IMG/VR virus record: IMGVR_UViG_2061766007_001954
DNA length: 64,000 nt
Direction: 5' to 3' (one strand)
Origin: an uncultured virus (IMG/VR IMGVR_UViG_2061766007_001954)
Lineage: Duplodnaviria > Heunggongvirae > Uroviricota > Caudoviricetes
Made by a program: the position numbers and the translations under genes
The notes under the pieces: model-generated
What the model saw: the letters and a program-made list of their open reading frames with translations, nothing else
The model's database searches: none
Told to the model about the DNA's origin: nothing
In this document: positions 1-57,504 of the stretch, one piece after another
How positions within the stretch are numbered: position 1 is the stretch's first letter
How the letters are laid out: every line of letters starts with the position of its first letter

Positions 1-99
1 TAGACAAAAGGTTAAGTCACCAAACATCTAATTTGGCATCTGTCAGTTCGAATCTGACATTACGTTCCCTTACTGGGATTAATAGTATCCTTCTTACGG

Positions 100-186
100 C
101 CCATCGTAGCTCAGTTGGTAGAGTACGAATTGTGTGTCAGCTTCTGACACCTACTGCAAGTTCTATCCTATTGTAAAGGCGGGGTC
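100..186 (+). ncRNA. tRNA-Thr(UGU)-like RNA with a hairpin+ACUGCAA insertion in the anticodon stem, truncated by a gap
   Basis: TAGCTCAGTTGGTAGAG D-arm. CG[insert 128-166]CCT-ATTGTAA-AGGCG would form an anticodon arm if the insert is looped out. The insert contains a GTGTCAG/CTGACAC hairpin followed by ACTGCAA. Confidence 0.55.
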
Positions 187-196
187 NNNNNNNNNN

Positions 197-395
197 ACAA
201 TTCCCTAAATGGATGAGCTTCGCAAACCCAGAGGATGGGTCTATGCCTGATATTACAGGTGATGCGGATGCTTTTGGCGCCTATCAATTACGCCAGCAAG
301 CCTATATAAACGATCTAAATGGCTTCGTTACAGCAAAACAAGAGCTGCTTACTAAAGAACTGCAGACCCTTGAAAAAGCTGGTATTTTGGGTTAA
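197..395 (+). CDS. 3' end of a hypothetical protein, 5' part lost in the N gap
   Basis: Open frame from the gap to TAA at 395. Confidence 0.4.
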
Positions 396-418
396 TTACT
401 GATTTTCAACGATTTCTG

Positions 419-447
419 TTGATTTTTGCCTGGTTTTAAGGCATAAT
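419..447 (+). promoter_or_regulatory. possible sigma70-type promoter
   Basis: TTGATT-N17-CATAAT upstream of the FNT/tRNA cluster. Confidence 0.3.
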
Positions 448-513
448 ATAATGGAGAGATTTGCGTCTCTTCAAAATCCCATAATTTCAACTCATAATAC
501 GGAGAAAATCACT

Positions 514-1152
514 ATGTTTGCTGGAATCATGATCGCCATCGCGGCGGTCATCAATCTGCAGTGTTCCAACCCCATTGTTGGAGCTTTCCTTTTTAGCCTT
601 GGTCTGCTTTCCATTGTGTACCATCATGGAAGCTTATACACGGGCATGACCGACAGCTGGCTCGATGAGTGGGCCGTAAACAAAGATGCACCCTGGTGGT
701 ACTGTCTGGATCGTGTCATGGGTAAGCTGGCACAACTGGCTACAGTTCTGTTCATGAACTTTGTCGGTGTCTGCACCATTGCTGGATTCGCACATTACTT
801 TGCCGGAGGTCAAGCACAGGAAGTGGTGGCTGCTAAGGCTACACTTCCGTGGTATCATCTTATCTGGTCCGGCGCTATGTGTGGTATGCTTATGTTGCTC
901 GCTGTCAGAAGCTATAAATTGGCTGAGCACTACAAGGAACATCTTATTGGTGTCGTGCTTTTGATCATGTGCGTTATGGCATTCATACTGGCAGGATTTG
1001 ATCACTCAATTGCCAATATGGCTTATGTCGTAACAGCTCATCAAGGCGGAGTTGCTGGGGTTAAGGTCATTATGTGGCCCGTGCTTGGTAACTTCGTCGG
1101 CGGCGCTGTGTTGCATCTCGCGTTGAGAGTCAACTGTAGTCGCTACTTTTAA
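514..1152 (+). CDS. formate/nitrite transporter (FNT) family channel
   Basis: About 6 hydrophobic helices; LYTG, NFVG, FILAGFDHSIANM and GNFVGG motifs; GGAG RBS at ~501. Confidence 0.85.
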   Translation: MFAGIMIAIAAVINLQCSNPIVGAFLFSLGLLSIVYHHGSLYTGMTDSWLDEWAVNKDAPWWYCLDRVMGKLAQLATVLFMNFVGVCTIAGFAHYFAGGQAQEVVAAKATLPWYHLIWSGAMCGMLMLLAVRSYKLAEHYKEHLIGVVLLIMCVMAFILAGFDHSIANMAYVVTAHQGGVAGVKVIMWPVLGNFVGGAVLHLALRVNCSRYF

Positions 1153-1159
1153 GACATAA

Positions 1160-1235
1160 AGCGCTGTAGTGTAATAGGTCAGCACACAGTCTTTTGGTGT
1201 CTGGAGTCCAGATTCGAATTCTGGCGGCGCTGCCA
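1160..1235 (+). tRNA. tRNA-Gln(UUG)
   Basis: Cloverleaf AGCGCTG/CGGCGCT, anticodon loop TTTTGGT, TTCGAAT T-loop, encoded CCA. Confidence 0.9.
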
Positions 1236-1255
1236 ATATTTAGAAAGGAATAACA

Positions 1256-2212
1256 ATGAACCTCACAATCACCGAGAGGGATAAATATATCCGTCACTGC
1301 GATGTAAAGCAGTATCTTAAAGCCGACAGCGCCAAGATCGAACGCTATCTGTTCGGTCACAAAGTCATCCTCGGCAACAACCAGTGGCTCTGGCATACTC
1401 ACATCAAGTTCTGTGAAAGATGCAATGCCAGATGCTCCTTCTGCATTGAACAGAATTCACACAGACAGGAGCTGCCCAAGAAAGTCATCTATAACGCAGA
1501 CATATTCCTGCGGGCAATGAAAGGTCAGGGCATTCTCTATAGCGTGTCCGTAACAGGTGGAGAACCGACCATCATGCCTGAGCTGGTTGATCTGTGTGTT
1601 ATGCTGAAAGCTCACGATATCAAATTTCTGACCATGAATACCAACGGAAGTCTTCTTCATAAGGTGCGTCCCTTTGTGGATGGTCTCTTTGATTTCGTCG
1701 ACATCAGTCGTCACAGTATCGATGATGCACAGAACAGTGGCATTTTCAAGACAATCACTGTGCCGACGCTGGAAGAGCTGAGACAGCTGAAAGAATCGTT
1801 CACAAAAACAAAACTGCGCATTCAGTGTGTTATGCAGGCCGGCATGACAGTGGAGCAATTTTTGAAAATGCTGGAGGCTTACAGCTTTGCAGATAACATC
1901 AGCTTCCGGCGTCTCATGAATCCGTTCGACTGGTTTACTGCCTACAACGACACCTTTGACGATCAGTATTTCAAGATACTCGACTGGGTGGCAGAACACG
2001 GTGAATTCGTCGAGCAGACTATTCAAGATTACTATGTGTACGAGATTTGGAATGTCAACGGCGTGAACGTTACTTTCAGTTACTCCGACATGCGGTCGCT
2101 AGATGCGCTGGAAAAGGTGGAAGATGAAGCAAACATTCGAGAGTTCATCATTCACCCCGATGGCGTGGTAGCCGGAAGCTGGCTGCCCGGCAGAAAGATC
2201 ATTCTCGAATAA
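1256..2212 (+). CDS. radical SAM protein
   Basis: CNARCSFC (CxxxCxxC), VSVTGGEPT, MNTNG. Confidence 0.9.
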   Translation: MNLTITERDKYIRHCDVKQYLKADSAKIERYLFGHKVILGNNQWLWHTHIKFCERCNARCSFCIEQNSHRQELPKKVIYNADIFLRAMKGQGILYSVSVTGGEPTIMPELVDLCVMLKAHDIKFLTMNTNGSLLHKVRPFVDGLFDFVDISRHSIDDAQNSGIFKTITVPTLEELRQLKESFTKTKLRIQCVMQAGMTVEQFLKMLEAYSFADNISFRRLMNPFDWFTAYNDTFDDQYFKILDWVAEHGEFVEQTIQDYYVYEIWNVNGVNVTFSYSDMRSLDALEKVEDEANIREFIIHPDGVVAGSWLPGRKIILE

Positions 2213-2325
2213 AGGATAACAGACATGAGCGAAGATTGGTGTGCATTTGGGTGTTGTATTATTCTTGGCATCATCTTTGCAATCGTGCTAGTGATCCGTG
2301 CGTTACTGTATGTTTGATTTGGTTA

Positions 2326-2402
2326 GGGCGTATAGCTCAGTTGCCTAGAGCGCCTGCTTTGCACGCAGGAGGTCGCGAGTTGAAGCCTCGCTACGTCCAC
2401 CA
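2326..2402 (+). tRNA. tRNA-Ala(UGC)
   Basis: G3:U70 pair, loop TTTGCAC, ACCA end; atypical D-loop CC and T-loop TTGAAGC. Confidence 0.9.
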
Positions 2403-2424
2403 GTTCTTTGAAAAATTGAAATTC

Positions 2425-2710
2425 GCAAATCTAGAAACTGTTGGCTTAGAGGCAGCCATCAGCTAAGGAGTGTGAGGAACCACCAGTAAGTGCGAAATGT
2501 ACGTAATATCATTTGGCATAGCATATAAAACACGAATCAGTTTACCGAACCAACTGGTCTATTAAAGCTATGTGTCGGGTATATGCGTATGATGTGCTGC
2601 TGGGACCAATGGGAGTAAGAGAGGTTAATGACCTTCACGTAGGTAGGCTGGACTAAAGCGCAAAGCCTTGACGTAACTTGCTTTGGCGTAATAGCACATT
2701 TTAGATTTGT
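2425..2710 (+). ncRNA. structured RNA containing a split 23S rRNA H43/H44 (uL11-binding) mimic, copy 1
   Basis: Closing stem GCAAATCTAGAA/TTTTAGATTTGT; TGTTGGCTTAGAGGCAGCCATCAGCTAAGGAGTG ... GCGTAATAGCAC. Confidence 0.7.
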
Positions 2711-2719
2711 TTTAATTTT

Positions 2720-2795
2720 GGCGTATGACCGAGCAACTGAACGGCAGTCTCTGCAAAAGACATGATGCCAGGGGGAGTACCTGGATACGCCTCCA
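2720..2795 (+). tRNA. tRNA-Cys(GCA), non-canonical T-loop
   Basis: GGCGTAT/ATACGCC acceptor, loop CTGCAAA, U73-CCA; T-loop GGGAGTA. Confidence 0.8.
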
Positions 2796-2799
2796 ATTT

Positions 2800-2872
2800 G
2801 TGCCCAGTAGCATAAGAGTAGTGCGCCAGTGGAAACACAAGAAGATCCTGAATGCAAGATCAGGCTGGGCAT
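2800..2872 (+). ncRNA. degenerate tRNA-like element
   Basis: GTGCCCAG/CTGGGCAT acceptor, D-like arm and CCTGA/TCAGG T-like stem, but no canonical anticodon arm. Confidence 0.45.
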
Positions 2873-2881
2873 CCTTGTCGT

Positions 2882-2957
2882 GTAGCTATTAGCATAGCAG
2901 CAAATGCACTCGGCCGTGGCCCGAGGGAAGTGGTGGCAGCAACCACATAGCTACCCA
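2882..2957 (+). tRNA. tRNA-His(GUG), non-canonical T-loop
   Basis: 8-bp acceptor GTAGCTAT/ATAGCTAC (G-1:C73), CTCGG-CCGTGGC-CCGAG, CCA; T-loop GGCAGCA. Confidence 0.8.
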
Positions 2958-2964
2958 ATCATAT

Positions 2965-3047
2965 GGCGGGTTGGCAGAGTAGTCAAATGCGACGGGCTGT
3001 AAACCCGCTGCCTTCGGGCTTCGGTGGTGCAAATCCATCACCCGCCA
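2965..3047 (+). tRNA. tRNA-Tyr(GUA)
   Basis: Loop CTGTAAA, long variable arm, T-loop TGCAAAT. Confidence 0.9.
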
Positions 3048-3062
3048 TATACCTTTTCTTAT

Positions 3063-3137
3063 TGCGGTGCACACTCGCAGTCGAGTGATCTGGTTCATAC
3101 CCAGATAGACCGGGGGCAGCACCCGGCACCGCTACCA
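3063..3137 (+). tRNA. tRNA-Met(CAU), initiator-like (1:72 mismatch), non-canonical T-loop
   Basis: TCTGG-TTCATAC-CCAGA, CCGGG-GGCAGCA-CCCGG, ACCA end. Confidence 0.7.
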
Positions 3138-3144
3138 ATTTCAT

Positions 3145-3234
3145 GGGGAGATGGCTGAGTGGTTTAAGGCAGCGCTTTGCTAAGGCGTCGACGCCGTATA
3201 GCGTCCGTGCGTTCGAATCGCACTCTCCCCGCCA
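3145..3234 (+). tRNA. tRNA-Ser(GCU)
   Basis: Loop TTGCTAA, long variable arm, TTCGAAT, GCCA end. Confidence 0.92.
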
Positions 3235-3237
3235 TAA

Positions 3238-3315
3238 GGAGCTGTAACTCAGATGGTTATGAGTAGGAATCTCATAAATTCTTGGTCGCAGGTTCGAACC
3301 CTGCCAGCTCCACCA
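3238..3315 (+). tRNA. tRNA with CAU anticodon (Met or lysidine-Ile2)
   Basis: GGAGCTG/CAGCTCC, loop CTCATAA, TTCGAAC, ACCA. Confidence 0.9.
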
Positions 3316-3393
3316 TCTTCCTCCACCTGTTACTTACGTCTTCTTTTCTCCGGTTCATGGCGTAGGGTCTCATAACAGTTGGAGGATCCCTTT

Positions 3394-3467
3394 GACAACC
3401 GACAAACTGATCACAGCGATTTTAATTTCAACAAACACACTTCACTGAAATCAAACCGTCGGTTGTC
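3394..3467 (+). ncRNA. stem-ACAGC(G)A RNA family member
   Basis: GACAACCGAC/GTCGGTTGTC closing stem; ACAGCGA at 3413. Confidence 0.45.
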
Positions 3468-3475
3468 TTCATCTT

Positions 3476-3594
3476 AGGATACTAACAGCAATCATTAAGT
3501 AATTAGACAAAAGGTTAAGTCACCAAACATCTAATTTGGCATCTGTCAGTTCGGATCTGACATTACGTTCCCTTACTGGGATTAATAGTATCCT
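3476..3594 (+). ncRNA. stem-ACAGCAA RNA enclosing a whole tRNA-Arg(UCU)-like cloverleaf
   Basis: AGGATACTA/TAGTATCCT stem, ACAGCAA at 3485; inside are a D-like arm, CCAAA-CATCTAA-TTTGG and GTCAG-TTCGGAT-CTGAC. Confidence 0.7.
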
Positions 3595-3754
3595 TCTTAT
3601 GGCCCATCGTAGCTCAGTTGGTAGAGCACGAATTGTGTGTCAGCTTCTGACACCTNNNNNNNNNNCTCCTTTCGTTTTCTACAGCATTCAAGGGAATTAA
3701 TCATCAGTGAACTGGTGGCTTTAGTCGATCTCTTGAATGCTGTTTTTCATTTTC

Positions 3755-3833
3755 GTGACGCATACAGCAATCCACATGGTAAATACAAGTCTTGAAAAAC
3801 TTGTTGTGGTTCAACTCCACAATTCTGCGTCAT
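3755..3833 (+). ncRNA. stem-ACAGCAA RNA with Ser(UGA)-like anticodon arm and T-arm
   Basis: GTGACGCA/TGCGTCAT, ACAGCAA at 3764, ACAAGT-CTTGAAAA-ACTTGT, GTGG-TTCAACT-CCAC. Confidence 0.7.
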
Positions 3834-3852
3834 GTCTTCAACCCATTAACTT

Positions 3853-3899
3853 GGACACCAACAGCAACATTATTGACCACAAATCAATTGATGGTGTCC
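3853..3899 (+). ncRNA. stem-ACAGCAA RNA with 5-bp/7-nt stem-loop, directly upstream of the DUF2828 RBS
   Basis: GGACACCA/TGGTGTCC, ACAGCAA at 3861, ATTGA-CCACAAA-TCAAT. Confidence 0.65.
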
Positions 3900-3913
3900 T
3901 GAAAGGAAACACT

Positions 3914-5374
3914 ATGACAACATTCGCTCGCGCTCTCCGCAAGGAAAGCAGAAAGACCCACACTGAAAATGGTGCTACCGCATATAGCACCACCGGTTCC
4001 GCTGTTTTGGACCTCTTTGGTTGCATCGGCTCGCTCCGTGAACGCAATGATTCTGAGATCGAGCGTCTCTTTGCTGACGCCTATCGTCAGGATCCGCTGC
4101 TTACCACTCGCTGTGTGTTTTATGCCCGTGATATCCGAGGCGGACTCGGTGAGCGCAACACTTTCAGAGTTATCCTACGCTATGCCGCCAAGCATCATCA
4201 GGAAGCAGTCAAGCCGAACATCCCGCTGATCGGTCTCTATGGCCGCTATGACGATTTGTACTGCCTTGTCGGCACCCCGCTGGAGGCTGACATGTGGGAG
4301 TACATGGATGCCCAGTTCAAGCTGGATGAGTTCAATATGAAGCGCGGCAAGCCCTGCAGCCTACTCGCAAAGTGGATCAAGACCCCAGACGGCAGCGCCA
4401 AGCAGACCAGGAAGCTCGGCTGCATGACTGCGCTGCACCTGGATCGTTCGGTGTACATGTTCAAGCGGCGCCTGCGCGCACTCAGAAAGTATCTGCATAT
4501 CGTCGAAGCGCAGATGTCTGCAAACAAGTGGAACGAAATCGACTACAGCATCGTTCCTTCCCGCGCTGCCATGATCTACCGCAAAGCGTTCTTGCGCCAC
4601 GATGAAGCCCGCTACCAGGCCTATATCGGCAAGGTGGAAAAGGGTGAGGAAAATATCCATGCGGATACGCTCTATCCGTATGACCTGGTGCATCAGGCAT
4701 GGCGCAACAGGCGTGAAGACGCCACCGTGGAAGCACAATGGCGGGCGCTGCCGAACTATCTGACAGAGCCTGCCAATGCCATCGTTATCGCCGATACCAG
4801 CGGCTCGATGACCTGCAACGGCGGACGTCCGCTTGACAGCTCGGTTGGTCTGGCGATCTATTTCGCTGAACGCAATACCGGACCGTTCCACAATCTGTGG
4901 ATGAGCTTCTCGGGTGATAGCCGCATTCAGCATCTCCGTGGCGAAACGCTGCATCAGAAGGTCGAAAACATCGACTACAGTCACTGGGCAAACAACACGA
5001 ACCTGGAGCGTGCATTCATGCATGTTCTTCAGATCGCCCAGGAGAACAACGTCAGACAGGAGGACATGGTGAAGAGCCTGATTGTCATCTCCGATATGGA
5101 GATCGATCGCACGGCCGGCAGCTGGTCTTTCTATGATGAGATGCGCAACCGCTTCCAGCAGGCAGGCTATGAAATACCGAATGTCGTTTACTGGAACGTC
5201 AACTCCCGTAACGACATCTTCCATGCGGACAAGAACCGCAAGGGAGTGCAGCTCTGCAGCGGACAGTCTCCGGCGACGTTCAAGCAGTTGATGGCAAGCA
5301 TCGGTATGACACCCATGCAGATGATGCGTAAGGTGCTCAACGGCGAGCGCTATCAGCCTGTCACGCTCGGCTAA
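3914..5374 (+). CDS. DUF2828-family protein (Ro60/TROVE-like helical domain plus vWA)
   Basis: TENGATAYSTTGSAVLDLF, ARDIRGGLGER, LLAKW, TLYPYDLV, MIDAS DTSGSM, ISDME, VVYWNV; AAGGA RBS. Confidence 0.85.
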   Translation: MTTFARALRKESRKTHTENGATAYSTTGSAVLDLFGCIGSLRERNDSEIERLFADAYRQDPLLTTRCVFYARDIRGGLGERNTFRVILRYAAKHHQEAVKPNIPLIGLYGRYDDLYCLVGTPLEADMWEYMDAQFKLDEFNMKRGKPCSLLAKWIKTPDGSAKQTRKLGCMTALHLDRSVYMFKRRLRALRKYLHIVEAQMSANKWNEIDYSIVPSRAAMIYRKAFLRHDEARYQAYIGKVEKGEENIHADTLYPYDLVHQAWRNRREDATVEAQWRALPNYLTEPANAIVIADTSGSMTCNGGRPLDSSVGLAIYFAERNTGPFHNLWMSFSGDSRIQHLRGETLHQKVENIDYSHWANNTNLERAFMHVLQIAQENNVRQEDMVKSLIVISDMEIDRTAGSWSFYDEMRNRFQQAGYEIPNVVYWNVNSRNDIFHADKNRKGVQLCSGQSPATFKQLMASIGMTPMQMMRKVLNGERYQPVTLG

Positions 5375-5384
5375 CATTTAACAT

Positions 5385-5516
5385 TGGGGAAGGGTGCACC
5401 TCAAGACAACACAAACGCACAAAGCTGCAGACGTTAGGATGAGTAGTGTTGTGTCTGATCCTAATGGGGGCACACGTGCAGCGATTGAGCAGTCTGGCGA
5501 GACCTGGGCTGCTCCC
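5385..5516 (+). ncRNA. candidate multi-pseudoknot structured RNA
   Basis: Four interleaved complementary segment pairs plus a terminal hairpin in intergenic DNA. Confidence 0.4.
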
Positions 5517-5968
5517 ATTTTCTAGACAACTGGTGCTTCTTAATGATTAGTTGTAAACTCGGCAAGCGCATCTGATGAATCTTCGCCCACTGCTCGAGGC
5601 ATCTAATCCAACTTCTTGATGGCATCAGCTGTCTTTACTTTTCCAGCCAGCCCAGAACGAAGAAGGGCAATTGCAGTTTCTCTCGGTTTGGGTTATGGGA
5701 TAACTGGGCTGGCTGGATTTCATGTTCCCGGAAACGGGGCATATTACTGCCATGCATATGCGTTCATTGTCATGCCGTGCCCACTCGGTGTGGTTTTGAA
5801 GACAGATCAATGTTCCAATCACATCCGCTGTTTTATATCGTTCCAAAGGTTCAGCTTGAGGGTTCTCCGCCCTGACGTTGTGATGCATCCTGTCAAAGTT
5901 GGCAGTAACTGACCTTCCTTCTCCTTTATAGTAGTGATACTGTATAGGAGAAGGTTTTTGTTTAATGC

Positions 5969-6044
5969 GCCAGCATAGCTCAGCAGGTAGAGCAATTCTT
6001 TTGTAAAGAATGGGTCGCGGGTCCGAATCCTGCTGCTGGCTCCA
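5969..6044 (+). tRNA. tRNA-Thr(UGU)
   Basis: GCCAGCA/TGCTGGC, ATTCT-TTTGTAA-AGAAT, TCCA end. Confidence 0.9.
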
Positions 6045-6057
6045 TATACTTTGTTAT

Positions 6058-6130
6058 CGGCGTGTTGACCAGTTGGTAGGCCGTCGCATTTGGGGTGCGA
6101 AAGTCGGGGGTTCGAGTCCCTCCACGCCGA
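6058..6130 (+). tRNA. tRNA-Pro(UGG)
   Basis: CGGCGTG/CACGCCG, TCGCA-TTTGGGG-TGCGA, TTCGAGT; CCA not encoded. Confidence 0.9.
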
Positions 6131-6166
6131 AATCCTTTACCTTTCCCCTCTCTAGGAGGTACACAT

Positions 6167-6562
6167 ATGAAATACATTCTTGCAATTCTTCTTACTGTTC
6201 TCGCTCTTACTGCAACCGCATCATCTGGTTTACAGCAACTTCTTAAGGATATTCCAGCAGATCATTTGGCTGTCGGAGTCCCCATGGTTCAGGCCCCTGC
6301 TATCAGTGATTTCAACAATATCCCGCGTGAGGGCTACAGACCTGTTACTTACTGGATGACATCAAATGCCAATGAGAGTTTCTATCCTGGCGTTAACTGG
6401 TATCATTCTGACTTTGCTGCCGATCCTTTCGATGGACGTATTGAAGTATTGGTAGTGGGAGAACCGTTGCCCTCTGCATCTATGACGATCTTTATAATGG
6501 CAGCAATTGTGGGAATAATATATTGGTGTAGGTTTAAGCCTGACCGAGAACTTGCTTTCTAA
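6167..6562 (+). CDS. secreted protein with PEP-CTERM-like (GEPLP) C-terminal sorting signal
   Basis: N-terminal signal peptide MKYILAILLTVLALTATAS; C-terminal GEPLPS, TM helix and basic residues; AGGAGGT RBS. Confidence 0.6.
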   Translation: MKYILAILLTVLALTATASSGLQQLLKDIPADHLAVGVPMVQAPAISDFNNIPREGYRPVTYWMTSNANESFYPGVNWYHSDFAADPFDGRIEVLVVGEPLPSASMTIFIMAAIVGIIYWCRFKPDRELAF

Positions 6563-6578
6563 TCAACAAGGACAACAT

Positions 6579-7001
6579 ATGAAAACACTCATTCAAAACC
6601 CGATCAGCCTCTTCTGGCTGTGCATGCTATTGCACCTGCTGGCTGACTTCCATTTCCAGGGCATCCTGGCAAGTATGAAGCAGAAGAACTGGTGGCCCAA
6701 GGCAATGAAATCTCTGCCCTGGAAAACCAGATGCAAAATCAAACAATCGCATCTCTTCGACTATGACTATGTGATGGCGCTGCTGTGTCATGCTCTTATG
6801 TGGAGCCTGATTACGTTATTGCCGCTTATGCTGGCAGTAACGCCCCTGCAGTTCTCTTTGCTTATCGGAGCCAACACTGTTTTTCACGCTATAGTTGACC
6901 ACGCAAAAGCGAACAAGCTTTGGATCAACCTCTGGGTCGACCAACTGCTTCATGTTTTGCAGATTGCGGCAACCGTAGCAGTCGTACATTACTTCATGTA
7001 A
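6579..7001 (+). CDS. DUF3307-family membrane protein
   Basis: HLLADFHFQ, HAIVDHAK, DQLLH motifs. Confidence 0.75.
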   Translation: MKTLIQNPISLFWLCMLLHLLADFHFQGILASMKQKNWWPKAMKSLPWKTRCKIKQSHLFDYDYVMALLCHALMWSLITLLPLMLAVTPLQFSLLIGANTVFHAIVDHAKANKLWINLWVDQLLHVLQIAATVAVVHYFM

Positions 7002-7003
7002 TT

Positions 7004-7337
7004 TACCTTTAGCACAGTTGGCTTAGAGGCAGCCATCTGTTAAAGAGTGACCCACGACATAGTGAACAGACCTTAAGTGGAAACCACGTGATACTCTGAC
7101 ACGCTATGCAAAAACACTCCGGACAAACCCGTGCGCCTAATAGGTCGTTCTAATGGTTGCAGGTTAGGCCTAAGCGAGAGCGATGAGTGATAATGCACAG
7201 CGAATGGTATGAGGTGGACAAAGCATCAGAACGAATGCGAGGTCCTATGGCTAACGAGGCAAGGGGAATAGACCTCTTCACGAACCTCCGGTAACACCGG
7301 GAGTGTGGTCTTTGGCGTAAAAGCACAACTAAAGGTA
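7004..7337 (+). ncRNA. structured RNA containing a split 23S rRNA H43/H44 mimic, copy 2
   Basis: TACCTTTAG/CTAAAGGTA closing stem; GTTGGCTTAGAGGCAGCCATCTGTTAAAGAGTG ... GCGTAAAAGCAC. Confidence 0.7.
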
Positions 7338-7347
7338 TTTTATTCTT

Positions 7348-7408
7348 AGGGCGCTCACAGCAAAAATTAAAATTTAGCTTTCAAGGTTAAGCCAAATTCT
7401 AGCGTCCT
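7348..7408 (+). ncRNA. stem-ACAGCAA RNA with UCA-type anticodon-like loop
   Basis: AGGGCGCT/AGCGTCCT, ACAGCAA at 7357, TTAGC-TTTCAAG-GTTAA. Confidence 0.6.
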
Positions 7409-7425
7409 CTTTCATGATTTCAAAT

Positions 7426-7549
7426 GGCCGTGTAGCTCAACGGTAGAGCGCAAGTCAATTTATATGGTGTCAGACTTCTGTCACTAACAGCAAGCTTACA
7501 TAAATAAGGGAACTTGATGTTAGATGTTCGAATCATCTCGCGGCCACCA
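7426..7549 (+). ncRNA. tRNA body whose anticodon loop is replaced by a 56-nt ACAGCAA module
   Basis: GGCCGTG/CGCGGCC-ACCA, canonical D and T arms; CAAGT/ACTTG stem encloses TGGTGTCAG/CTGTCACTA-ACAGCAA. Confidence 0.75.
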
Positions 7550-7555
7550 TTCTTT

Positions 7556-7614
7556 GGATTCCCACAGCAATCATTAAGGATTTGACTTTTAATCAAACAC
7601 CCTATATGGAATCC
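7556..7614 (+). ncRNA. stem-ACAGCAA RNA with Lys(UUU) anticodon stem-loop
   Basis: GGATTCC/GGAATCC, ACAGCAA at 7564, TTTGA-CTTTTAA-TCAAA. Confidence 0.7.
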
Positions 7615-7625
7615 TGTTACTATTA

Positions 7626-7682
7626 AGGGCACACCCAGCAATCTTCTATAACTTTCGTCGTCATCGAAACTATAGGTGTCCT
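7626..7682 (+). ncRNA. stem-(C)CAGCAA RNA with Asp(GUC)-like stem-loop
   Basis: AGGGCAC/GTGTCCT, CCAGCAA at 7635, TTTCG-TCGTCAT-CGAAA. Confidence 0.65.
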
Positions 7683-8219
7683 GTTTATGTTCTGTCGAAA
7701 GCGAGCAGCGTTTCTTTCATCCTTTCTGCGACGCTTGCAATTAGACAGTACAACCCCACTGCCTATGGCTTTGGGTACGGTGAGTGCCGTAAGGCTCGAT
7801 AAGCGCAAGCTGCTCACCTGTTATGCCGAGTAGGGACGGACGTCCAATTCCCCGAAAGGTACCCCGCTATGCCTCTTGACAATGCACACTTTGGCGGGGA
7901 TTTTTGCATTCATTCAGGTTTTGATTACGAGGACGCTTCGTCTTCACAAAGTAATGTTAGCATGCATTAAAAGAAGACCGTTGAAGATACACGAAACGGG
8001 TACACGCTTCGAGTCAATAGACCGGCTAAAGCCGGCTTAGACTCAGCGTACACCCGTTTCGTGTCATCCTAAACGGTATCCCTTCTGTCTTCTGGCCTAC
8101 CGCATCGCTACCGTTCCGATCCAAATGCAAGCTAATGGATCGCTCACGGAGCGATGCTTAACGCCATTTCAACATTCAACATCTAGAAAACCTGATTTCT
8201 CACGAGCTTTGAACAGGCA

Positions 8220-9146
8220 GACGTTTCGTCCGCACAACCGCATGTACGGAAACACTGGAAAACAGCCAATCGTTATGATAAGCCCATGTCAACAGCAGAG
8301 ATGGCCAGCCTACGTCTGGCCATCTCGTCCTCGACATGCATAACGCTTCCGTAAGAGACGAAGCCTCCAGGTAAACCTTCGGTAGGAGTCTTATCCGGAA
8401 GAGGTCGCATGCGCGACTCTCCGGAACGACATCTACCGACAGGTAACCTGGAGGCTCCCTCAATTACTTGAACTAGAAAGCTCTACCTTCGGTTACTCAT
8501 TTGAAATTGCTGGCGTTCCGTCAGCATAGCAACAAACTAACGAGATATTAGATAGACTTGAGAACAAACATAAAACTGATCGAGATTGTCGAGCTTATGC
8601 ACATATGTTATCGAGTTTCACCAATCCATGGAGCAAACTCTCAACATAAATGCATAATCTCTCGAGCTCTACTCAGTTTTATGTCTTGACAGACAAGTCT
8701 TCAGTTCTCAACAGAAAAGAGTAACTAACCTATCACATTGACTTGACAGCGTTCCGCTGCCACAAACGTAATGACCGGTGATGTTAAAAGCATCTTCGTG
8801 CTACGTGCTCGTGCAGCTCCTCCGTCTTCCCATGCGGGAAGCCTGCATAGCTGCACGCTCACCCACCGGGATCCACCGGATCCCGCTGAGGCTCGAGCTA
8901 GAATGTGATAACAATTTGCGTTTGACTTGCGGACGTTTCGTCCGCACAACCTGAACAGTGCATAGCAATAAAAGCATATGATCAGGGATTTTTCGTCTGT
9001 AACGCAGACCGCTACGACGACGTTCCACCAGAGACAGCTCTGGCTACACGTCGTCCCGCGCTGCTACAGCCGAAAAGCACACACATGACTTTAATCTAGA
9101 AACGCAACATTAACAGCTTGACTCGCGGACGTTTCGTCCGCACAAC
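8220..9146. repeat. three dispersed copies of GACGTTTCGTCCGCACAAC
   Basis: Copies at 8220-8238, 8932-8950 and 9128-9146; the latter two read TTGACTYGCGGACG-TTT-CGTCCGC (hairpin). Confidence 0.85.
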
Positions 9147-28190: not shown

Positions 28191-31100
28191 ATGCAGCAGC
28201 TAGCCACAGTTGATGTCCATATAAAGGACATATTCAACGGGTCTGTCCGTGTCGCGCAGTGGACAAGAGCAGACCCGTTCCCGCAAATGGGCCCGTGTGT
28301 CGGAGTTGATACCGAGACTGAACTTATAACCGAAACTAATTCAGCGCCTCCTTTGGTGGTGCTCGGAGTTTTTGATCCGCAAAGCGCCACATGCTATATT
28401 AGCTACTGGGAAGACGCTGCTGTGTTCATCAACTGGTTGAGTAAACAGGAGATTCGGCAAGTCTATTTCAATTTGGGATTTGATGAGCATGTGTTGAATG
28501 ATGTGGACACTGAAAAGGCATTAATGGACTCCATCGAGTATGGTCGAGTCAGGGATATGCAGATCAGGACACAACTCAATGACATAGCAACAATTGGTTT
28601 CATTCCATGGAATCACTGGAAGCTGGCAGAACTCAGCGAGATCTTCCTCGGCGTACACCTTGACAAAGGAGAGGAAGATGATCCAAATTCTCACAGACTT
28701 ACATTCCGCAGAGGTACTCCAATAACACAGGAGCAAGCCATATATCTGATGTGGGACTGTGTGAGCACCTGGGCGCTCAGCGAGATTCAGCCAGAAGCAC
28801 CTACCGAGGTTCAACACACCAAAGGCATGGTCGTACTGTCGCATATCAGCCATAACGGTTTCCCTATAGATATGGTTGTATTCGAGGCCTTTGAGCGCAA
28901 ACTGCAAGCTCAGCGAGATGAGTATCGTCTCAGGCTCATGGAATTCGGATTCCCGGATCCCTACAAGAAGAATCAGGACGAGAACGGGGACTATAAACGG
29001 TTTGTGGAAAAACAGACCAGACAGTTCCTGGAGCTAACTGGTGAGGAGCTTAATAAGCCATTGAACCTGTGCAAAGGCAATATGCGTATGGCGCTCTTGT
29101 ACATGTTCAACTTTGCTGGTGAACCGGATGAGACTGAGGACTTCGAACAAAGCGTAGGTTATTGGCTGACACAAGAAAAGCCAAAGAATATACGCAAAGC
29201 AGAGAAGCCTGTATTCGATGCAATGATGACTGAGTATGAGTTGGATGCCTTCTTTGATGCCGGCAAAGAGATCGTCATGAATGCACTATTTGGGCATGTA
29301 ATGGAAGATCTGATAAACCAGCAGGGAACGAAGAAGGAAAAAGGCTATGATCTTGGTCACGCTATCGAGTATGCAGGTGATATCATAGATGACCATTCGC
29401 ACTGGTTGTCCAAAGAGGTACAGATAGGGCCAAAAACGTTTCTGCAAAATCACTATAAGCAGTTAGAGCAGAATAATCCTGGATTGGAATTACCGCGTAC
29501 TCCAAAAAGTGGAGAGATTAAACTCTCACTGCAGGACATGTGGCTTCTAGAAGATGCTGGGGTCAAGGATCCCTTTGTAGAAGTGTATACAAAATATACA
29601 CATGCTACCAAATATTTAAGCACCTACCTCAACAGGGAATTTATAAAAACGGATGGAAAGATACACGCCAAATTCACCAATTTGATGAAAACAGGTAGAA
29701 CATCATGTACCCGGCCTAATATTCAAAATCTCCCAAGTCGGGATAAGATCTATCCGTTAAAAAATATTTTTCAACCGCCTGAAGGGGCCGTATTGTGTGC
29801 GACGGACTTCTCATTTATAGAACTTTGTGCATTTGCACAGACGTGTTACAGTAGATTCGGCTACTCGGTAATGCGCGATGTTATCAATGCAGGAATAGAT
29901 CCTCATAGATGGTTCTCAGGCGTAATGAACAAAGTCATAACCCCAGACCTCAGCAATAAAGACGATCCCGAGTGGGTTGCGGAACTGAATGCCTTCTTGA
30001 AAGAGAAGATCAGCAGTGATGCCAGACAACTGGCAAAGGCAGCGAATTTTGGCCTACCTGGTAGGATGGGACCAGCTCGCTTTTATATCCACCTGAGGAG
30101 CAACGGGTTAAAGGCAACACCTGCGGAGGCAGAGGCAATGTGTAATGCATGGACACGAACCTTCAAGGAGATGCAACAACACAAAAATCCATTAAAAGCC
30201 AAAAGTACAAAACTTGCTAAAGTATTCTTCGGTATCCAACAACGTTCCGACGGGGAGGAAGATGAAGAGGACGCAGCACCGGGTGACTTCATGGCTATCT
30301 TACCATGTGGTCAAATAAGAAATCGTTGCTCGATAAACGCAGCTTGTAATGTACAGTTCCAGGGAACTACTTCGGTTGGCGCCAAGATGGCAGGCTGGAA
30401 TCTAGTATATCATGGTTACGGCGATAGGTTACTCAATTTTGTGCATGAAACCATTTGACCTGTTACAGTAGTAATAGGAGGTTTTCTATCATGTATAAAG
30501 TTTATGTCTGGACAAATCATATTACTGGATTGAAGTATGTTGGCACAACAGGTACCAGTATGGAGAAAAGGGCTGGTATCAACGGATATCACTATAGAGG
30601 ATCTCCGAGATTTTATAACGCTATACAGAAGTATGGCTTTGATAATTTCTCTTACGAGATTATTGCGGATGATTTAACTAAGGCAGATGCTGCAGAGATC
30701 GAGAAAGAATATATAGAAAAACTCGGTACTATGGATCCTGCTAAAGGTTATAATTTGCAAGAAGGTGGTTTTTCGGATAATGTGCCATTATCCAACGAAT
30801 CCAGGTCAAAACGCATATCAGATACATTGAAAGAGCAGAGAGCGTCAGCAGAATATAGAGCTATTATGAGCTCCAGGATGCAAAAAGTGTGGGATGATCC
30901 TGTACGAAGAGCAGAGATGTTGAAAAAGCGTTCTGGTAAATATGCCGGACGGCATCCAATAGCTGTATTCTGTGATGAGACAGGAGAAGTATATCCAGAT
31001 CTGCATAAAGCATCAAATGCTTTACATATATCAGCTTCGAGTATAAGTAATGCGCTTAAATGTTCAGACGTAGCTACTATCGGTGTACGGTTAGGTACAC

Positions 31101-31646
31101 CATATACAGTTAGAAAAATAAAAGTGCACGTTAAAGAGGGTGAATTGCTGGAAGCCTCAGCGGGTTATGCCGGTGGTAATCAGCAGCCAAGCTCAGAATA
31201 GCTAGAATTTGATTTCTGAGAAGGTTCAACGACTATTCGCAAGAAGTACAACCAAGTGGTTGGAAGTGCCCTCATGTTACATTAAATATGTGACATATGA
31301 TATAGTCTAATCTGCATAGAAATATGCAGCAGCTATACGGCGGTCGTTGCGTAACGAACAACGATGAATATAAATGGATGAGTTCCTTTATTGGTTGTGG
31401 CCAAATGAGTTACAAACTCATATTCCCATCATTGAAAATTTAATGATAGGTGGCATGAAGACCGTGATACCAGATGTAAAAGTAGGAGTTGAGTCTTCCT
31501 GTATGCTACACTGGGACAAGAAAGCAACCGAGTTTTCTAAACTTCAATGGACACCAGACGGTCTCCCCATACTGGAGGAACCGCCCTTCGTCCAAGAACT
31601 ACACAAGGCGCTAGAGGCGCAGAAAGAACAGGTAACGCATGATTAA
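28191..31646 (+). CDS. polA: family A DNA polymerase, join(28191..30446,31377..31646)
   Basis: VDTET exonuclease motif, TGRTSCTRPNIQN, DFSFIEL, RQLAKAANFG; splicing restores motif C VH|DE. Confidence 0.92.
30447..31376 (+). mobile_element. group I intron in DNA polymerase motif C
   Basis: P1 GTGCAT/GTGCAC (at 31124), GAATTGCTGGAA, AATCAGCAG, P7 GACTA/TAGTC, terminal G at 31376. Confidence 0.9.
30491..31201 (+). CDS. intron-encoded GIY-YIG homing endonuclease
   Basis: KVYVWTNHITGLKYVG, AIQKYG, GYNL; AGGAGGT RBS. Confidence 0.9.
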   Translation: MYKVYVWTNHITGLKYVGTTGTSMEKRAGINGYHYRGSPRFYNAIQKYGFDNFSYEIIADDLTKADAAEIEKEYIEKLGTMDPAKGYNLQEGGFSDNVPLSNESRSKRISDTLKEQRASAEYRAIMSSRMQKVWDDPVRRAEMLKKRSGKYAGRHPIAVFCDETGEVYPDLHKASNALHISASSISNALKCSDVATIGVRLGTPYTVRKIKVHVKEGELLEASAGYAGGNQQPSSE

Positions 31647-53913: not shown

Positions 53914-56900
53914 ATGCAAATAATTAAACGTGATGGCTCGAAAGTCGACTTTGACCGAAACAAGATCACTGTAGCCATCAAGAAAGCCCTGGAAGCCTGC
54001 GATATGGCAAGCGATACCATAGCTCTGAGTGTGACAGAGGATGTGGTACAGGCTATAGGGGACGTCGAAGAAATAGACCAGGAACGTGTCCAAGACCTGG
54101 TCGAAGATGCCTTGATGAAAAGAGGCATGCTGAAAGTAGCGAAGGCTTATATTAAGTATCGCTATAGACACGCAATGGTGAGAGATCATCATATGGAATT
54201 GGTTAACGGAGTGCTCGATAAGCTATCCGCTAAACATGTTGTAAACCAGAATGCCAATATCGATGAAGCATCATTTGGTGGCAGGATGGGAGAGGCAAAC
54301 ACGTTTGTTCTTAAAACGCTTGCCATGGACTTCAAAATGTCCGATAAGACAAAGAACAATTATGTGCAAAACATTGTATATCAACATGATGCGGAACATT
54401 GGGCTACCGGCGAGCATAATTGCCTTACCCTTCCTTTGGATAAGCTTTTGGAGAAAGGCTTCCTACTCAGACAGGGCGACATCAGACCACCCCAGTCCAT
54501 CAGTACAGCGTTGCAGCAGCTGGTAGTCATCATGCAGCTGCAGTCTACGCAGATGTATGGTGGAGTAGCCGCCATGGCTGATTTCGCGTTGGTTCCTTAT
54601 GTGCGTAAGTCCTTCAAGAAGCACTATTTGAAAAGAGCTTTCGAAGAGTACATGCATGACCGCATACTTATGGACAAAGAACCGACTGGAGATATGAAGG
54701 ATGCTCTGTGGAAGTTCCCAACTAAGGCAAGCTGGTATGCTCTAGATGATGAACATCTGGATTTCGTGGAGAAAGCATTCAATAAATGGTATATGGAAGT
54801 TATGGGTCTTGATGACGCTGACTTCTGCTTTGCCTGCACGAAGCTTGATGCCTCTATGAAATCTGCAGCTATGCAGGATACAAGAAAAGAGACGTTACAA
54901 GCCGTCGAGGGTCTATACCATAACTTAGTTTCAATCCAGGCGCGTTCAGGAGCAGCTCTTCCTTTTTCCAGTCTGAACTATGGATGCTGCACAGAGCCAG
55001 AAGGCCGCCTTGTAACTGAGTGCATTATCCTCGGATGCATGCGTGGTATTGGCAAACATCATTCAACTGCTATCTTCCCCTGTGGGATCTTCATCAGTAA
55101 GGCTGGTGTGAATCGTCATCCTGGTGAGCCAAACTACGATCTGTTCCAACTGGCGCTTGCATCTACTGCTAAACGCCTGTATCCCAACTATGCGAATGCC
55201 AATTGGACAAATCAACATAGTTGGGTTAAGGCTGACAGAGAGAAAAAGGCGCAGATCCTCGAGTCACTGACAGAGACGGAATATGCCCAGTTGAAAGATC
55301 GCGTTGCTGCAAATCCAGCAGTGGCCGATAAACTTATGCTGCTTATCAAGGACGACAAACTGATCGTAGATGAAACGGAACGTCCCTTCGAGTATATGAG
55401 CAGTATGGGCTGTGTTTCTGGTGATTCTATCATCGACTACAAAATAGGAGAGCGGCGTTTTGTTGAGTCTTTCCAACGTGCCTGGAACAGGCTTGCTGGT
55501 ATGTATGAAATAAAGACGCAGCCAAATGGCAGAGACCTGTATATTGATACACCGGATGTTAGCGTCTACGATTGTGTCGTACAGAAGTATGTCAAACAAT
55601 ATCGAATCATCAGAAACAGATCTCGGCAGTGGTTGACTGTTGATTTTTCAGGCGGAAGGACGCTTGATGTTACACCTGATCATCCATTTGAGGTTCTTGA
55701 GAAGGGTGTGGTTATGGCCCGAGATCTGGTTATCGGTGATGTTATTCACAGAGATGTGAATAATAATAGACAGCCGGAAGCACCAGACTTTGACAGGAAA
55801 ATGTGGCTAGAGGGTCTTGTTCTGTGTGATGCAAGCATTGCGGGCTCTTTGAATCTGGCCCTTGGGCTTGATGAAACAGATCTGCTAGATGAAGCAGAGA
55901 GAGGTTTTAACGACCTTGGTTATGAGTGCACAAGACGCGAACAGCATCGTGGAAGTAAAGGCGACTATGCCGAGCTTTATGTAAAGATGTCACGCCAGCT
56001 TTGTTGTACCTATATGAATGCGTTCGAAGGAAATATAAAGCTGGAACGCAAGATACCAACTGCTATCTTCAATGCATCACGCTCGCAAAAACTGTCATTC
56101 ATGGCTGGTATGATAGATGCAGACGGTTATGTAAATGATTATGGCAACACTATACGTGTGCAAATAGGTTCAACAAACAGAGAGCTTGCCATGGGTCAGA
56201 TGATACTTGCCAAAGATATAGGATTAAATGCTGTTATGTATCGTAACAGATATAACTCAGCAGATCCTTCAAAAATTCGTTGGCGCATAGAGTTCCCTGC
56301 ATCTTATGAGCTGTTCTCATACCTGGTATCCGGCAAGAAGCGTGCACATCTACACGAAGAGCACAAGTTTGTGTCCTGGGCTGTCATAGACGCAGACACC
56401 TGCAGCGTGACGCAAATTACGCCGTATGAGAAAGGCGACTACAGTTATGATGTTACTACAGAGTCTGATCATTTCACTGTAAATGGCGTCTATTCTCACA
56501 ACTGCCGTACAGTGAATGGCTACGACATAAACTCTGATATTAGCTATAAGCAGGCTATACATGAAGTGATTGAAACAGGTGATACAACCGTGGATCTTCT
56601 TTCTGGTGCACAGAAGACAGGTCGTGGTAATATTGCCCCTGTTACGATCATTCTTCCAGAGCTTGCTATGATGGCTAACAGAGATGTCGAGACATTTATG
56701 CAGCTTCTTGAGATTACTATTCAGGAGGCAGCTGATTCGCTAATTGAGCGTTATGCGATTGTTAAGTCTCAGCCACCGTCAGCAGCACCTTTTCAGTACG
56801 GTAATCACACAATGGCTGGCTACATAGAAGGAGAAGGTATTGATACCGCTATCCGACATGGAACCTTCGCTATTGGTCAACTGGGTGTGGCAGAAACGCT

Positions 56901-57504
56901 GCAGTTGCTTATCGGCACAGATCAGACAACACCAGAAGGCCTAGAACTCGCCAGGCGTATCGAACAGCTGTACAAGGACAAGATCAATGCGCTTCGTGTC
57001 AAGTACAAAATCAATTTTGGGGTCTACGCCTCTCCGGCCGAGAATTTAGCATATACAGCGCTTAAGAAGTTCCAAGCTAAGTATGGCAAGATTCCAAATG
57101 TCTCTGACAAGGAGTTCTTTACTAACTCGATGCACGTGCCTGTCTGGCGCAAAATGTCACCTTTTGACAAGATTGACATCGAGTCTCAGCTGACCGGTTA
57201 TTTCACTGCCGGAATAATCACCTATGTGGAGCTTGACTCAAGTGTGCGCCATAATTTGGAAGCACTTGAGAAGCTTGTGCTCTATGCTATGGACCGCGAT
57301 ATTCCTTATTTTGCAATCAACACACCGAATGATCAGTGTCAGGATTGCGGATATGAGGGAGATCTCCCTGGTCCCTGCATTAAATGCGGGTCTTCTAATA
57401 TAAAAAGACTGCGCAGGATCACAGGATATTTGAGCTCGGATTATCATCATTTCAATCTCGGTAAGCAAGACGAAGTCGAGCATCGAGTTAAACACATAGG
57501 GTAA
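53914..57504 (+). CDS. nrdD: anaerobic (class III) ribonucleotide reductase with ATP cone and intein
   Basis: IIKRDG ATP cone, HNC, MG|CR, CQDC/CIKC, RITGYL glycyl-radical loop. Confidence 0.95.
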   Translation: MQIIKRDGSKVDFDRNKITVAIKKALEACDMASDTIALSVTEDVVQAIGDVEEIDQERVQDLVEDALMKRGMLKVAKAYIKYRYRHAMVRDHHMELVNGVLDKLSAKHVVNQNANIDEASFGGRMGEANTFVLKTLAMDFKMSDKTKNNYVQNIVYQHDAEHWATGEHNCLTLPLDKLLEKGFLLRQGDIRPPQSISTALQQLVVIMQLQSTQMYGGVAAMADFALVPYVRKSFKKHYLKRAFEEYMHDRILMDKEPTGDMKDALWKFPTKASWYALDDEHLDFVEKAFNKWYMEVMGLDDADFCFACTKLDASMKSAAMQDTRKETLQAVEGLYHNLVSIQARSGAALPFSSLNYGCCTEPEGRLVTECIILGCMRGIGKHHSTAIFPCGIFISKAGVNRHPGEPNYDLFQLALASTAKRLYPNYANANWTNQHSWVKADREKKAQILESLTETEYAQLKDRVAANPAVADKLMLLIKDDKLIVDETERPFEYMSSMGCVSGDSIIDYKIGERRFVESFQRAWNRLAGMYEIKTQPNGRDLYIDTPDVSVYDCVVQKYVKQYRIIRNRSRQWLTVDFSGGRTLDVTPDHPFEVLEKGVVMARDLVIGDVIHRDVNNNRQPEAPDFDRKMWLEGLVLCDASIAGSLNLALGLDETDLLDEAERGFNDLGYECTRREQHRGSKGDYAELYVKMSRQLCCTYMNAFEGNIKLERKIPTAIFNASRSQKLSFMAGMIDADGYVNDYGNTIRVQIGSTNRELAMGQMILAKDIGLNAVMYRNRYNSADPSKIRWRIEFPASYELFSYLVSGKKRAHLHEEHKFVSWAVIDADTCSVTQITPYEKGDYSYDVTTESDHFTVNGVYSHNCRTVNGYDINSDISYKQAIHEVIETGDTTVDLLSGAQKTGRGNIAPVTIILPELAMMANRDVETFMQLLEITIQEAADSLIERYAIVKSQPPSAAPFQYGNHTMAGYIEGEGIDTAIRHGTFAIGQLGVAETLQLLIGTDQTTPEGLELARRIEQLYKDKINALRVKYKINFGVYASPAENLAYTALKKFQAKYGKIPNVSDKEFFTNSMHVPVWRKMSPFDKIDIESQLTGYFTAGIITYVELDSSVRHNLEALEKLVLYAMDRDIPYFAINTPNDQCQDCGYEGDLPGPCIKCGSSNIKRLRRITGYLSSDYHHFNLGKQDEVEHRVKHIG
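55411..56502 (+). mobile_element. intein (364 aa) with in-frame LAGLIDADG endonuclease
   Basis: CVSGDS..VTPDHP..EGLVLCDA..AGMIDADG..YDVTT..VYSHN|C. Confidence 0.93.

Follow-up and report, generated by a model that had tools for sequence, protein, structure and literature searches.

Why does a phage genome carry two copies of a piece of 23S rRNA, each closed by a stem of its own and each holding a different insert? The question arises from positions 7004-7337 (W2) and 2427-2708 (W1), both on the (+) strand, of the window, i.e. the whole 64,000-nt stretch of DNA analyzed, from an uncultured virus of the Caudoviricetes (IMG/VR IMGVR_UViG_2061766007_001954). An earlier note made from the sequence had marked W2 as a second, diverged mimic of rRNA helices H43 and H44, and the coordinates it gave are the exact limits of the element. 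With moderate confidence, we favor the reading that W2 is a phage non-coding RNA gene, an off-ribosome mimic of the uL11-binding GTPase-associated centre (GAC) that would compete for whatever recognizes this site.

Comparison with E. coli 23S rRNA assigned the 5' block of the copies to 1057-1090 and the 3' block to 1091-1102. Together the blocks make up H43, the junction turn and H44 of the GAC, which is the tip of H42, H43 and H44 and which binds uL11 and meets the translation GTPases. In the 64-kb window the first block occurs exactly twice (2440-2460 and 7017-7037), as does the second (2681-2697 and 7310-7326), and the chance expectation is nil, with two matches in 0/100 shuffles. W2 is closed by a 9-bp stem (7004-7012 with 7329-7337, from the sequence and the MFE fold), and W1 by an unrelated stem of 10 bp (2427-2436 with 2699-2708). 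Within the head, two pairs show double compensatory changes, 1058:1080 being U-A in W1 and A-U in W2, and 1082:1086 being C-G in W1 and U-A in W2. The insert, located between GAGU and UUUGG at the identical site between 1090 and 1091, measures 211 nt in W1 (2471-2681) and 262 nt in W2. The two inserts appear alike barely beyond chance: their local alignment scored 15 vs 11.5 ± 1.7 for shuffles, 13/300 of which reached at least 15, and 26/300 shuffles had an equal or higher global score. These results agree with the description in the earlier note of both blocks in both copies, different closing stems, and a longer, largely different W2 insert at the same site with only short motifs in common.

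Read from its 5' end, W2 opens with the closing-stem arm at 7004-7012, in the position of the H42 tip, followed by two unpaired bases (7013-7014) opposite 7327-7328, equivalent to rRNA 1055-1056 versus 1103-1104. Here W2 lacks the 1055-1104 pair, which 99/103 relatives keep, and it retains the rRNA-like purine-A mismatch at 1056/1103. The H43 copy (7015-7039) contains the stems 7015-7017/7037-7039 and 7019-7022/7032-7035, a U.U at 7018/7036 and a nine-base loop (7023-7031) in which 7025 is the equivalent of A1067. After it come the junction turn (7040-7044, equivalent to 1082-1086), with a U7040-A7044 pair that covaries in the family, and the H44 5' strand GAGU (7045-7048, equivalent to 1087-1090), in which 7046 is A1088, the partner of U1060 (7018). 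The 262-nt insert (7049-7310) is closed by GACC (7049-7052) with GGUC (7307-7310). The UUUG linker (7311-7314), a family signature not in rRNA, connects it to the H44 hairpin (7315-7326), which consists of G7315-C7324, C7316-G7323, the six-base loop 7317-7322, in which 7319 is equivalent to A1095, and the 3' strand bases A7325 and C7326. Two unpaired bases and the 3' arm of the closing stem complete the element (7327-7337; sequence and MFE fold). The predicted fold and the family covariation give W2 the three-way junction of closing stem, H43 hairpin and H44 hairpin, and W1 has the same head.

The closing helix of the W2 insert obeys the family rule, and its first two pairs covary in the family. 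Because no relatives of this insert were found, its inner fold is taken from energy prediction alone, a multi-branched MFE structure with z of -1.4 to -1.9. When both inserts were queried by blastn against about 130 family members, only self matches were returned; a head-specific pattern in viral contigs gave two loci, both of another insert class and neither with a relative of the W2 insert; and the W2 3'-junction pattern in metagenome contigs gave four loci, three being family members of other classes and one a chance match. blastn of W2 and W1 against INPHARED (GenBank phages) gave no match. The W1 insert belongs to the class 'GUGCGAAAUG ... AUGAUGUGC', which is common to other phages (about 15 other loci). 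Two checks proposed in the earlier note came out negative: the six short ORFs of W2 (20-58 aa, mostly with GTG starts) are not persuasive, and the best complementarity between the W2 insert and the rest of the window was 12 nt, the same as in shuffles. As for known RNAs inside the inserts, copies of 5S rRNA, the SRL or domain II were rejected: chance words of 10-14 nt were all that blastn returned from E. coli 23S, from partial 16S and from an rRNA fragment. In the absence of an Rfam match, 5S or any other known RNA was rejected as well.

The element is not peculiar to this phage. The exact H43-loop pattern was found in at least 119 IMG/VR stretches, nearly all with the same build. Searching one-genome-per-species contigs for the 3' block gave at least 121 loci, of which the head search flagged 24, the rest being chance 16-mers; 20 distinct elements among the flagged loci had all three motif anchors, and at least two look false. 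The flagged contigs are labelled Clostridia, Ruminococcus, Neisseriaceae, Bacteroidota, Chloroflexota, Thioploca and a Pseudobdellovibrionaceae bin, among others, and the habitats of the family cover gut, soil, freshwater and marine phages. Our family sample comprised 103 distinct elements from viral and genome contigs, among the matches listed.

For the covariation analysis, 85 elements with no second insert and with inserts of up to 270 nt were aligned with MAFFT, leaving out 18/103. The tested structure contained 23 pairs, made up of the closing stem, H43, 1082:1086 and H44 plus the initial two pairs of the helix that opens the insert. Across the 85 elements, 93.0% of the cells were paired, as against 70.2% in shuffles (0/500 as high) and 31-50% in slid controls, and the covariation score was 0.567, as against 0.140 for shuffles and 0.06-0.18 for slid partners. 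Changes on both sides occurred in 17/23 pairs, including all nine pairs of the closing stem, whose sequence is not conserved, and the 1082:1086 pair was UA in 40, CG in 29 and AU in seven of the aligned elements.

Other positions define the family rather by what stays fixed. Position 1056/1103 forms a standard pair in 0/103 elements, 1060/1078 is U.U or U.C in 92/103, and the U1090-A1101 pair, a signature not in rRNA, is present in 101/103. The insert always lies between 1090 and 1091 and ranges from 40 to 337 nt. Its opening helix of 3-10 bp starts directly after GAGU, closes directly before the linker and covaries, and the UUUG linker itself is kept at U 80/81, U 80/81, U 78/81 and G 76/81 in loci found via the other block. 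The shortest inserts are plain hairpins, the longer ones fall into several unrelated sequence classes, some members have an additional insert in the H43 3' strand, and self-closed copies with no insert occur as well (L117/L051). W2 has every family feature: the GAC head, U1090-A1101, a closed insert at 1090/1091, UUUG and an arbitrary stem. The central claim of the earlier note, a conserved ribosome-mimic head carrying a variable insert and kept by selection instead of being a chance rRNA fragment, is thereby upheld: compensatory changes run through the relatives in the sample of 103, the family has features foreign to rRNA (U1090-A1101, the UUUG linker, self-closure), and the insert varies in length and in sequence class at one fixed site. 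The note had named a lack of expression and of homologues as counting against it; homologues are abundant, and RNA-library contigs lie over W2.

Databases and literature were then compared. Rfam 15 contains no model for the element, and W1 and W2 matched no family at E <= 10 except for a weak LSU alignment, in which 7015-7054 falls on the H43/H44 columns of RF02541 (17.9 bits, E 0.0015, below the gathering score of 50). blastn against E. coli 23S detected no similarity to the rest of the rRNA in the W2 flanks and insert. We found no description of a phage GAC mimic in the literature, bioRxiv supplements and most subscription journals being outside the search. Within this scope, W2 is a member of a phage GAC-mimic RNA family without previous database or literature description.

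Which bases of the head are constrained? Motif patterns served both to find the loci and to anchor them, and this biases the conservation figures in part; with this limit, U1060, U1065/1066, G1071, C1072 and A1077 are kept in 20/20 and G1093, U1094 and A1098 in 81/81 loci found via the opposite block, A1085, G1087 and A1088 in 103/103 elements, and U1090 in 101/103. W2 has all of the bases that serve the tertiary fold and uL11 contact (U1060-A1088, G1071, C1072, 1082:1086, G1091-C1100 and C1092-G1099), and relatives keep them in 20/20 to 103/103 cases. On the other hand, A1067 is replaced by G in 4/20, G1068 by A in 4/20 and A1096 by G in 17/81, at positions that meet the factors and thiostrepton; the Rfam LSU consensus prints 1067, 1068 and 1096 in capitals, and the family is looser there. 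Kept fold bases together with looser factor and thiostrepton bases fit selection on the fold and on uL11 binding. The C-terminal domain of uL11 is described as making an important hydrogen-bond contact with the U1060-A1088 pair and as lying for the rest on the minor groove of the 1067 stem via backbone contacts (PMC2175356). Only 3/21 genomes contained both a mimic and the 23S rRNA of its own host, and in these three, a number too small for a trend, the variable positions agree in two and differ in one. The uL10 site is located further down H42. The closing stem of W2 ends after 9 bp and the uL10 site lies beyond it, and therefore the mimic should not bind the uL10-bL12 stalk.

The gene context of the family is one of tRNA genes and other stable RNAs. 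tRNA genes were present in the fetched flanks of 53/101 elements (flank medians 686 and 501 nt), all of them on the strand of the element (150/150), and 36 elements have a tRNA within 100 nt. In one locus (L096, 155-583) a complete element with a class-A insert sits inside the P6 loop of a group I intron (64.8 bits) that interrupts a phage ORF. In another (L062) the element is followed by a tRNA and, about 150 nt away, by a ROOL RNA (1-357 (-), 216 bits, cut by the locus end). In view of these tRNA-island, ROOL and intron-loop settings, the element is a stand-alone RNA gene that rides whatever stable non-coding transcript is available. W2 itself starts 3 nt past the stop codon of ORF 6552-7001 with no (+) promoter-like site directly before it, so it is probably on the transcript of this ORF.

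Among 30 phage records that are long and contain the element (101-433 kb), a single copy was counted in 29 and two copies in one; in the two-copy record both copies have the same insert class, and the two copies on the L187/L188 contig have different classes. A uL11 gene was found in 0/30 of these records and in 14/14 genomes of a control search, so that any bound uL11 would be the host's. DUF2828 is encoded in 7/30 records, 2-15 kb from the element in 6/7. As an obligate partner gene, uL11 (0/30) and DUF2828 (7/30) were both rejected.

The window has the genes of a large phage (family-A DNA polymerase, ThyX, NAD-dependent ligase, reverse transcriptase and NadA), and the public runs containing its sequence are bovine, goat and sheep gut metagenomes. 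Its first 9 kb form an RNA-gene island with eight tRNAs (ARAGORN), to which Rfam adds a tRNA-like match with a long insert and an abiF-motif RNA, and in which several long structured spacers stand amid few small ORFs. We compared four RNA-library runs with positions 200-9000, all as contigs, which show neither strand, ends nor level, and DNA is possible in RNA libraries. W2 was covered in three rumen RNA libraries from two studies, by a 359-nt contig of run X15 (7007-7364, two differences), a 276-nt contig of run X17 (7059-7334, no difference) and a 221-nt contig of run X18 (7107-7327, no difference). These contigs are consistent with transcription and do not prove it. That the contigs of X17 and X18 stop short of the head is probably due to its being common to real rRNA; indeed, real rRNA contigs align on 7017-7049 and then continue as rRNA (loose ends at 7049), and the bin depth, high at 6962-7255 in X17 and X18, is inflated by them. 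In X15, X17 and X18 the W2 contig exceeds every other listed phage piece in depth, although contig depths cannot rank genes, and the single listed variant, G7214A (X15), disrupts a predicted pair and has no bearing either way. No contig among those listed for the four runs covered the W1 insert, a result to which we attach no inference; other contigs match the W1 5' block and then continue as unrelated sequence (loose ends at 2471), a hint that these libraries contain additional family members.

The fourth run, X16, captured the turnover of these elements. Its 2,673-nt contig, from a phage about 96% identical, joins 7002 to 7348 with seven other letters between them. This phage is without exactly 7003-7347, which makes W2 a gain/loss cassette. 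A 4,968-nt X16 contig matches both W1 head blocks and fails to match the 207 nt that separate them (joint 2473->2681), so that inserts turn over between close relatives. Since a close relative lives without W2 and 29/30 phages have a single copy, W2 is dispensable. The X16 phage is also without 5558-5594 (37 nt), and its equivalent of 2319-3740 has about 1.8 kb more sequence; the RNA island is an indel hotspot.

Several other features of the window deserve mention in their own right. At 7426-7546 (+) there is a tRNA-like gene whose anticodon region contains an insert of about 50 nt; the Rfam tRNA model scores it at 52.1 bits over 121 nt, and ARAGORN makes no call. An RNA-library contig covers 7439-7639 here. 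Similar insert-bearing genes lie at 100-186 and 3600-3655, both entering N-masked stretches, and the inserts have a common small hairpin of the 'GUGUCAG..CUGACAC' type. Positions 1-186 and 3484-3655 form a direct repeat of about 170-190 nt flanking a 3.3-kb segment that contains W1; each copy holds a tRNA-Arg(tct)-type gene and the start of an insert-bearing tRNA-like gene, and ends N-masked. The spacers at 2700-2960, 3050-3140, 3320-3480 and 7550-8500, between tRNA genes, are long and non-coding with strong local hairpins and matched no Rfam family, and an X17 RNA-library contig covers 2780-3044. An abiF RNA motif was found at 7863-7899 (+), scoring 37.3 against a gathering score of 37. Its usual place is ahead of bacterial abiF abortive-infection genes, and the phage version could be a counter-defence decoy. 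Between W1 and W2, 3737-5371 (+) encodes a DUF2828 and DUF7788 protein and is followed by long structured spacers (5380-5960); DUF2828 is, we presume, Ro60/TROVE-like, which would suggest a Y-RNA-type partner. Farther away, a group I intron at 31077-31329 (+) (Rfam, 84.6 bits), accompanied by a GIY-YIG endonuclease gene (ORF 30455-31198), lies directly after the family-A DNA polymerase ORF 28191-30455 and ahead of ORF 31374-31643 and splits the polymerase gene. The anaerobic ribonucleotide reductase NrdD (53914-57501 (+)) is split by an intein with a LAGLIDADG domain.

From the observed sequence, covarying fold, family, gene context and RNA-library presence, we infer for W2 the binding of uL11, an action in trans and the role of a competitor. 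W2, the ORF upstream of it and the tRNA-type genes downstream would be transcribed jointly on the (+) strand, and W2 would then be excised as a stable piece, the ends of which would fold as a self-closed GAC copy while the lineage-specific 262-nt domain would emerge from H44 between 1090 and 1091. The GAC surface would thus be displayed away from the ribosome, most likely occupied by host uL11, and might compete with ribosomes, be it for uL11 or for an agent that targets the uL11-GAC site (a factor, a toxin or an antibiotic), the insert being an expansion that differs between lineages and even between close relatives. Among candidate agents at this site are the thiopeptides and RelA, whose alarm pathway needs uL11. 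Attack on this site has a precedent in Tre23, a T6SS toxin that modifies the loop of H44 (1095-1098) by ADP-ribosylation and impairs the GTPase activity of EF-G (PMC8661411). More tentatively, and as a possibility short of being probable, large phages across many bacterial phyla may make a uL11-GAC decoy particle that carries host uL11 and shields translation in infection by absorbing site-directed agents (Tre23-type ADP-ribosyltransferases of immunity or warfare, thiopeptides, the RelA pathway), its fast-changing insert being tuned to opponents. Simple titration is quantitatively doubtful, because ribosomes far outnumber any plausible decoy. This excess, the dispensability of W2 and its missing 1055-1104 pair are counted against the mimic reading, as is the exit of the insert from H44 beside the base pairs that dock the H43 loop.

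The main rival, which we regard as rather unlikely, reverses the roles of the two parts: the insert would be the working part, e.g. as an aptamer, as an antitoxin-like RNA or as a domain for protein binding, and the head a very stable chassis, perhaps protected by uL11, that would help it to fold, cap it and stabilize it in the manner of tRNA-like scaffolds. In favor of this, inserts form conserved classes in which internal-loop motifs recur and a GNRA/UAAC-type hairpin is present ('CACCCC..GGUAAG' occurs in 22/85 aligned elements). Inserts also differ between W1 and W2, and between L187 and L188 on another contig, and the relative of about 96% identity keeps the W1 head blocks and not the W1 insert. 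However, an insert can be a plain hairpin of 40-46 nt (L020, L014, L115) or be missing altogether, as in the self-closed L117/L051, which leaves the head as the sole universal and strongly constrained part, and the W2 insert has no relatives and only chance-level complementarity to the window.

The cassette could instead be selfish, a mobile RNA gene that colonizes the tRNA islands and intron loops of phages and brings its carrier little or no gain. We consider this improbable as the whole explanation, and it is compatible with the mimic reading. The exact presence or absence of 7003-7347 between near-identical phages is what such a cassette would leave behind, two copies occur here and on a few other contigs, one element is nested in an intron P6 loop, and the contigs are labelled with several bacterial phyla. 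The cassette ends, however, show no transposase, target duplication or terminal repeats, and strong purifying selection on a specific, rRNA-like tertiary fold needs a functional reason even in a mobile element.

A cis-regulator of the ribosomal-protein-leader type, through which uL11 or uL10 would control the translation or stability of a neighbouring mRNA, seems highly improbable to us. Autoregulatory leaders that mimic rRNA are an established principle, and W2 follows the stop of ORF 6552-7001 so closely that both are probably on the same transcript. But relatives sit amid tRNA genes or in an intron loop and not beside one kind of ORF, homologues of the upstream ORF in four viral loci have no such element within 1.5 kb, and W1 and W2 match no ribosomal-protein leader family at E <= 10. 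Hardly tenable is a self-splicing intron, of group I or another kind, in a mini-exon composed of rRNA sequence. With U at the end of the 5' block and G at the end of the insert, the boundaries (U|...G|) fit group I rules, and the window does contain a true group I intron (31077-31329); yet Intron_gpI (RF00028) matched neither W1 nor W2 nor any of 20 relatives even at E <= 10, inserts of 40 nt are too short, the insert ends pair together with no P1/P10, and the L096 element is cargo inside an intron and not the intron itself. Finally, an inert fragment of host 23S rRNA acquired by the phage, suggested by a head close enough to rumen rRNA for real rRNA contigs to align on 7017-7049, is refuted by covariation, i.e. 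by the compensatory changes between W1 and W2 and over 85 relatives, and is further opposed by self-closure through unrelated stems, by family-specific bases not in rRNA and by inserts with no other rRNA similarity.

If the mimic reading holds, what would it mean? Rfam 15 and the literature within our search reach contain no stand-alone virus-encoded mimic of an rRNA domain, and the family is nonetheless abundant. Should uL11 be bound or an agent of the uL11-GAC be diverted, this would be a new phage route to manipulate or protect translation. The family may also point to host defences or toxins acting on the stalk base, and it would offer a natural, compact and insertion-tolerant RNA scaffold. 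The present window adds one phage with two copies and unrelated inserts, a gain/loss cassette between near-identical phages, and presence in rumen RNA libraries.

Among known systems, ribosomal-protein leaders (e.g. Rfam L10_leader) are likewise off-ribosome RNAs that mimic the site of a ribosomal protein. They are partial mimics in cis, placed before the regulated host operon, whereas the phage RNA is a near-exact copy amid phage tRNA genes and has no such Rfam match. Y RNAs (YrlA) with Ro60-type proteins likewise combine a long terminal stem with a module mimicking another cellular RNA, and the likeness extends to the DUF2828/DUF7788 protein gene between W1 and W2; unlike them, W1 and W2 have no YrlA match, and DUF2828 is present in just 7/30 element-bearing records. 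ROOL and GOLLD are, like the phage RNA, phage-borne, highly structured and found in tRNA islands, but W1 and W2 match neither in sequence or model. ROOL and GOLLD copy no rRNA domain, a text search of the source having given nothing relevant on 23S, L11 or rRNA (PMC5737381). The closest counterpart is the bacterial 23S GAC itself (E. coli 1051-1108, the uL11/thiostrepton domain). The phage RNA agrees with it in three-way architecture, in loop sequences and in the positions that stay non-canonical (purine-A at 1056/1103, U.U or U.C at 1060/1078). Covariation affects the pairs 1057-1059/1079-1081 and 1082/1086 in both, and the family and the Rfam LSU consensus vary alike at 1058, 1080, 1082, 1086 and 1097. 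In contrast to the 23S GAC, it is a separate gene outside the 2.9-kb rRNA, with an arbitrary closing stem (9-10 bp or longer) in place of H42 with its uL10 site; its constraint is relaxed at 1067, 1068 and 1096, and it has the fixed U1090-A1101 pair, the UUUG linker and an insert of 40-337 nt at 1090/1091.
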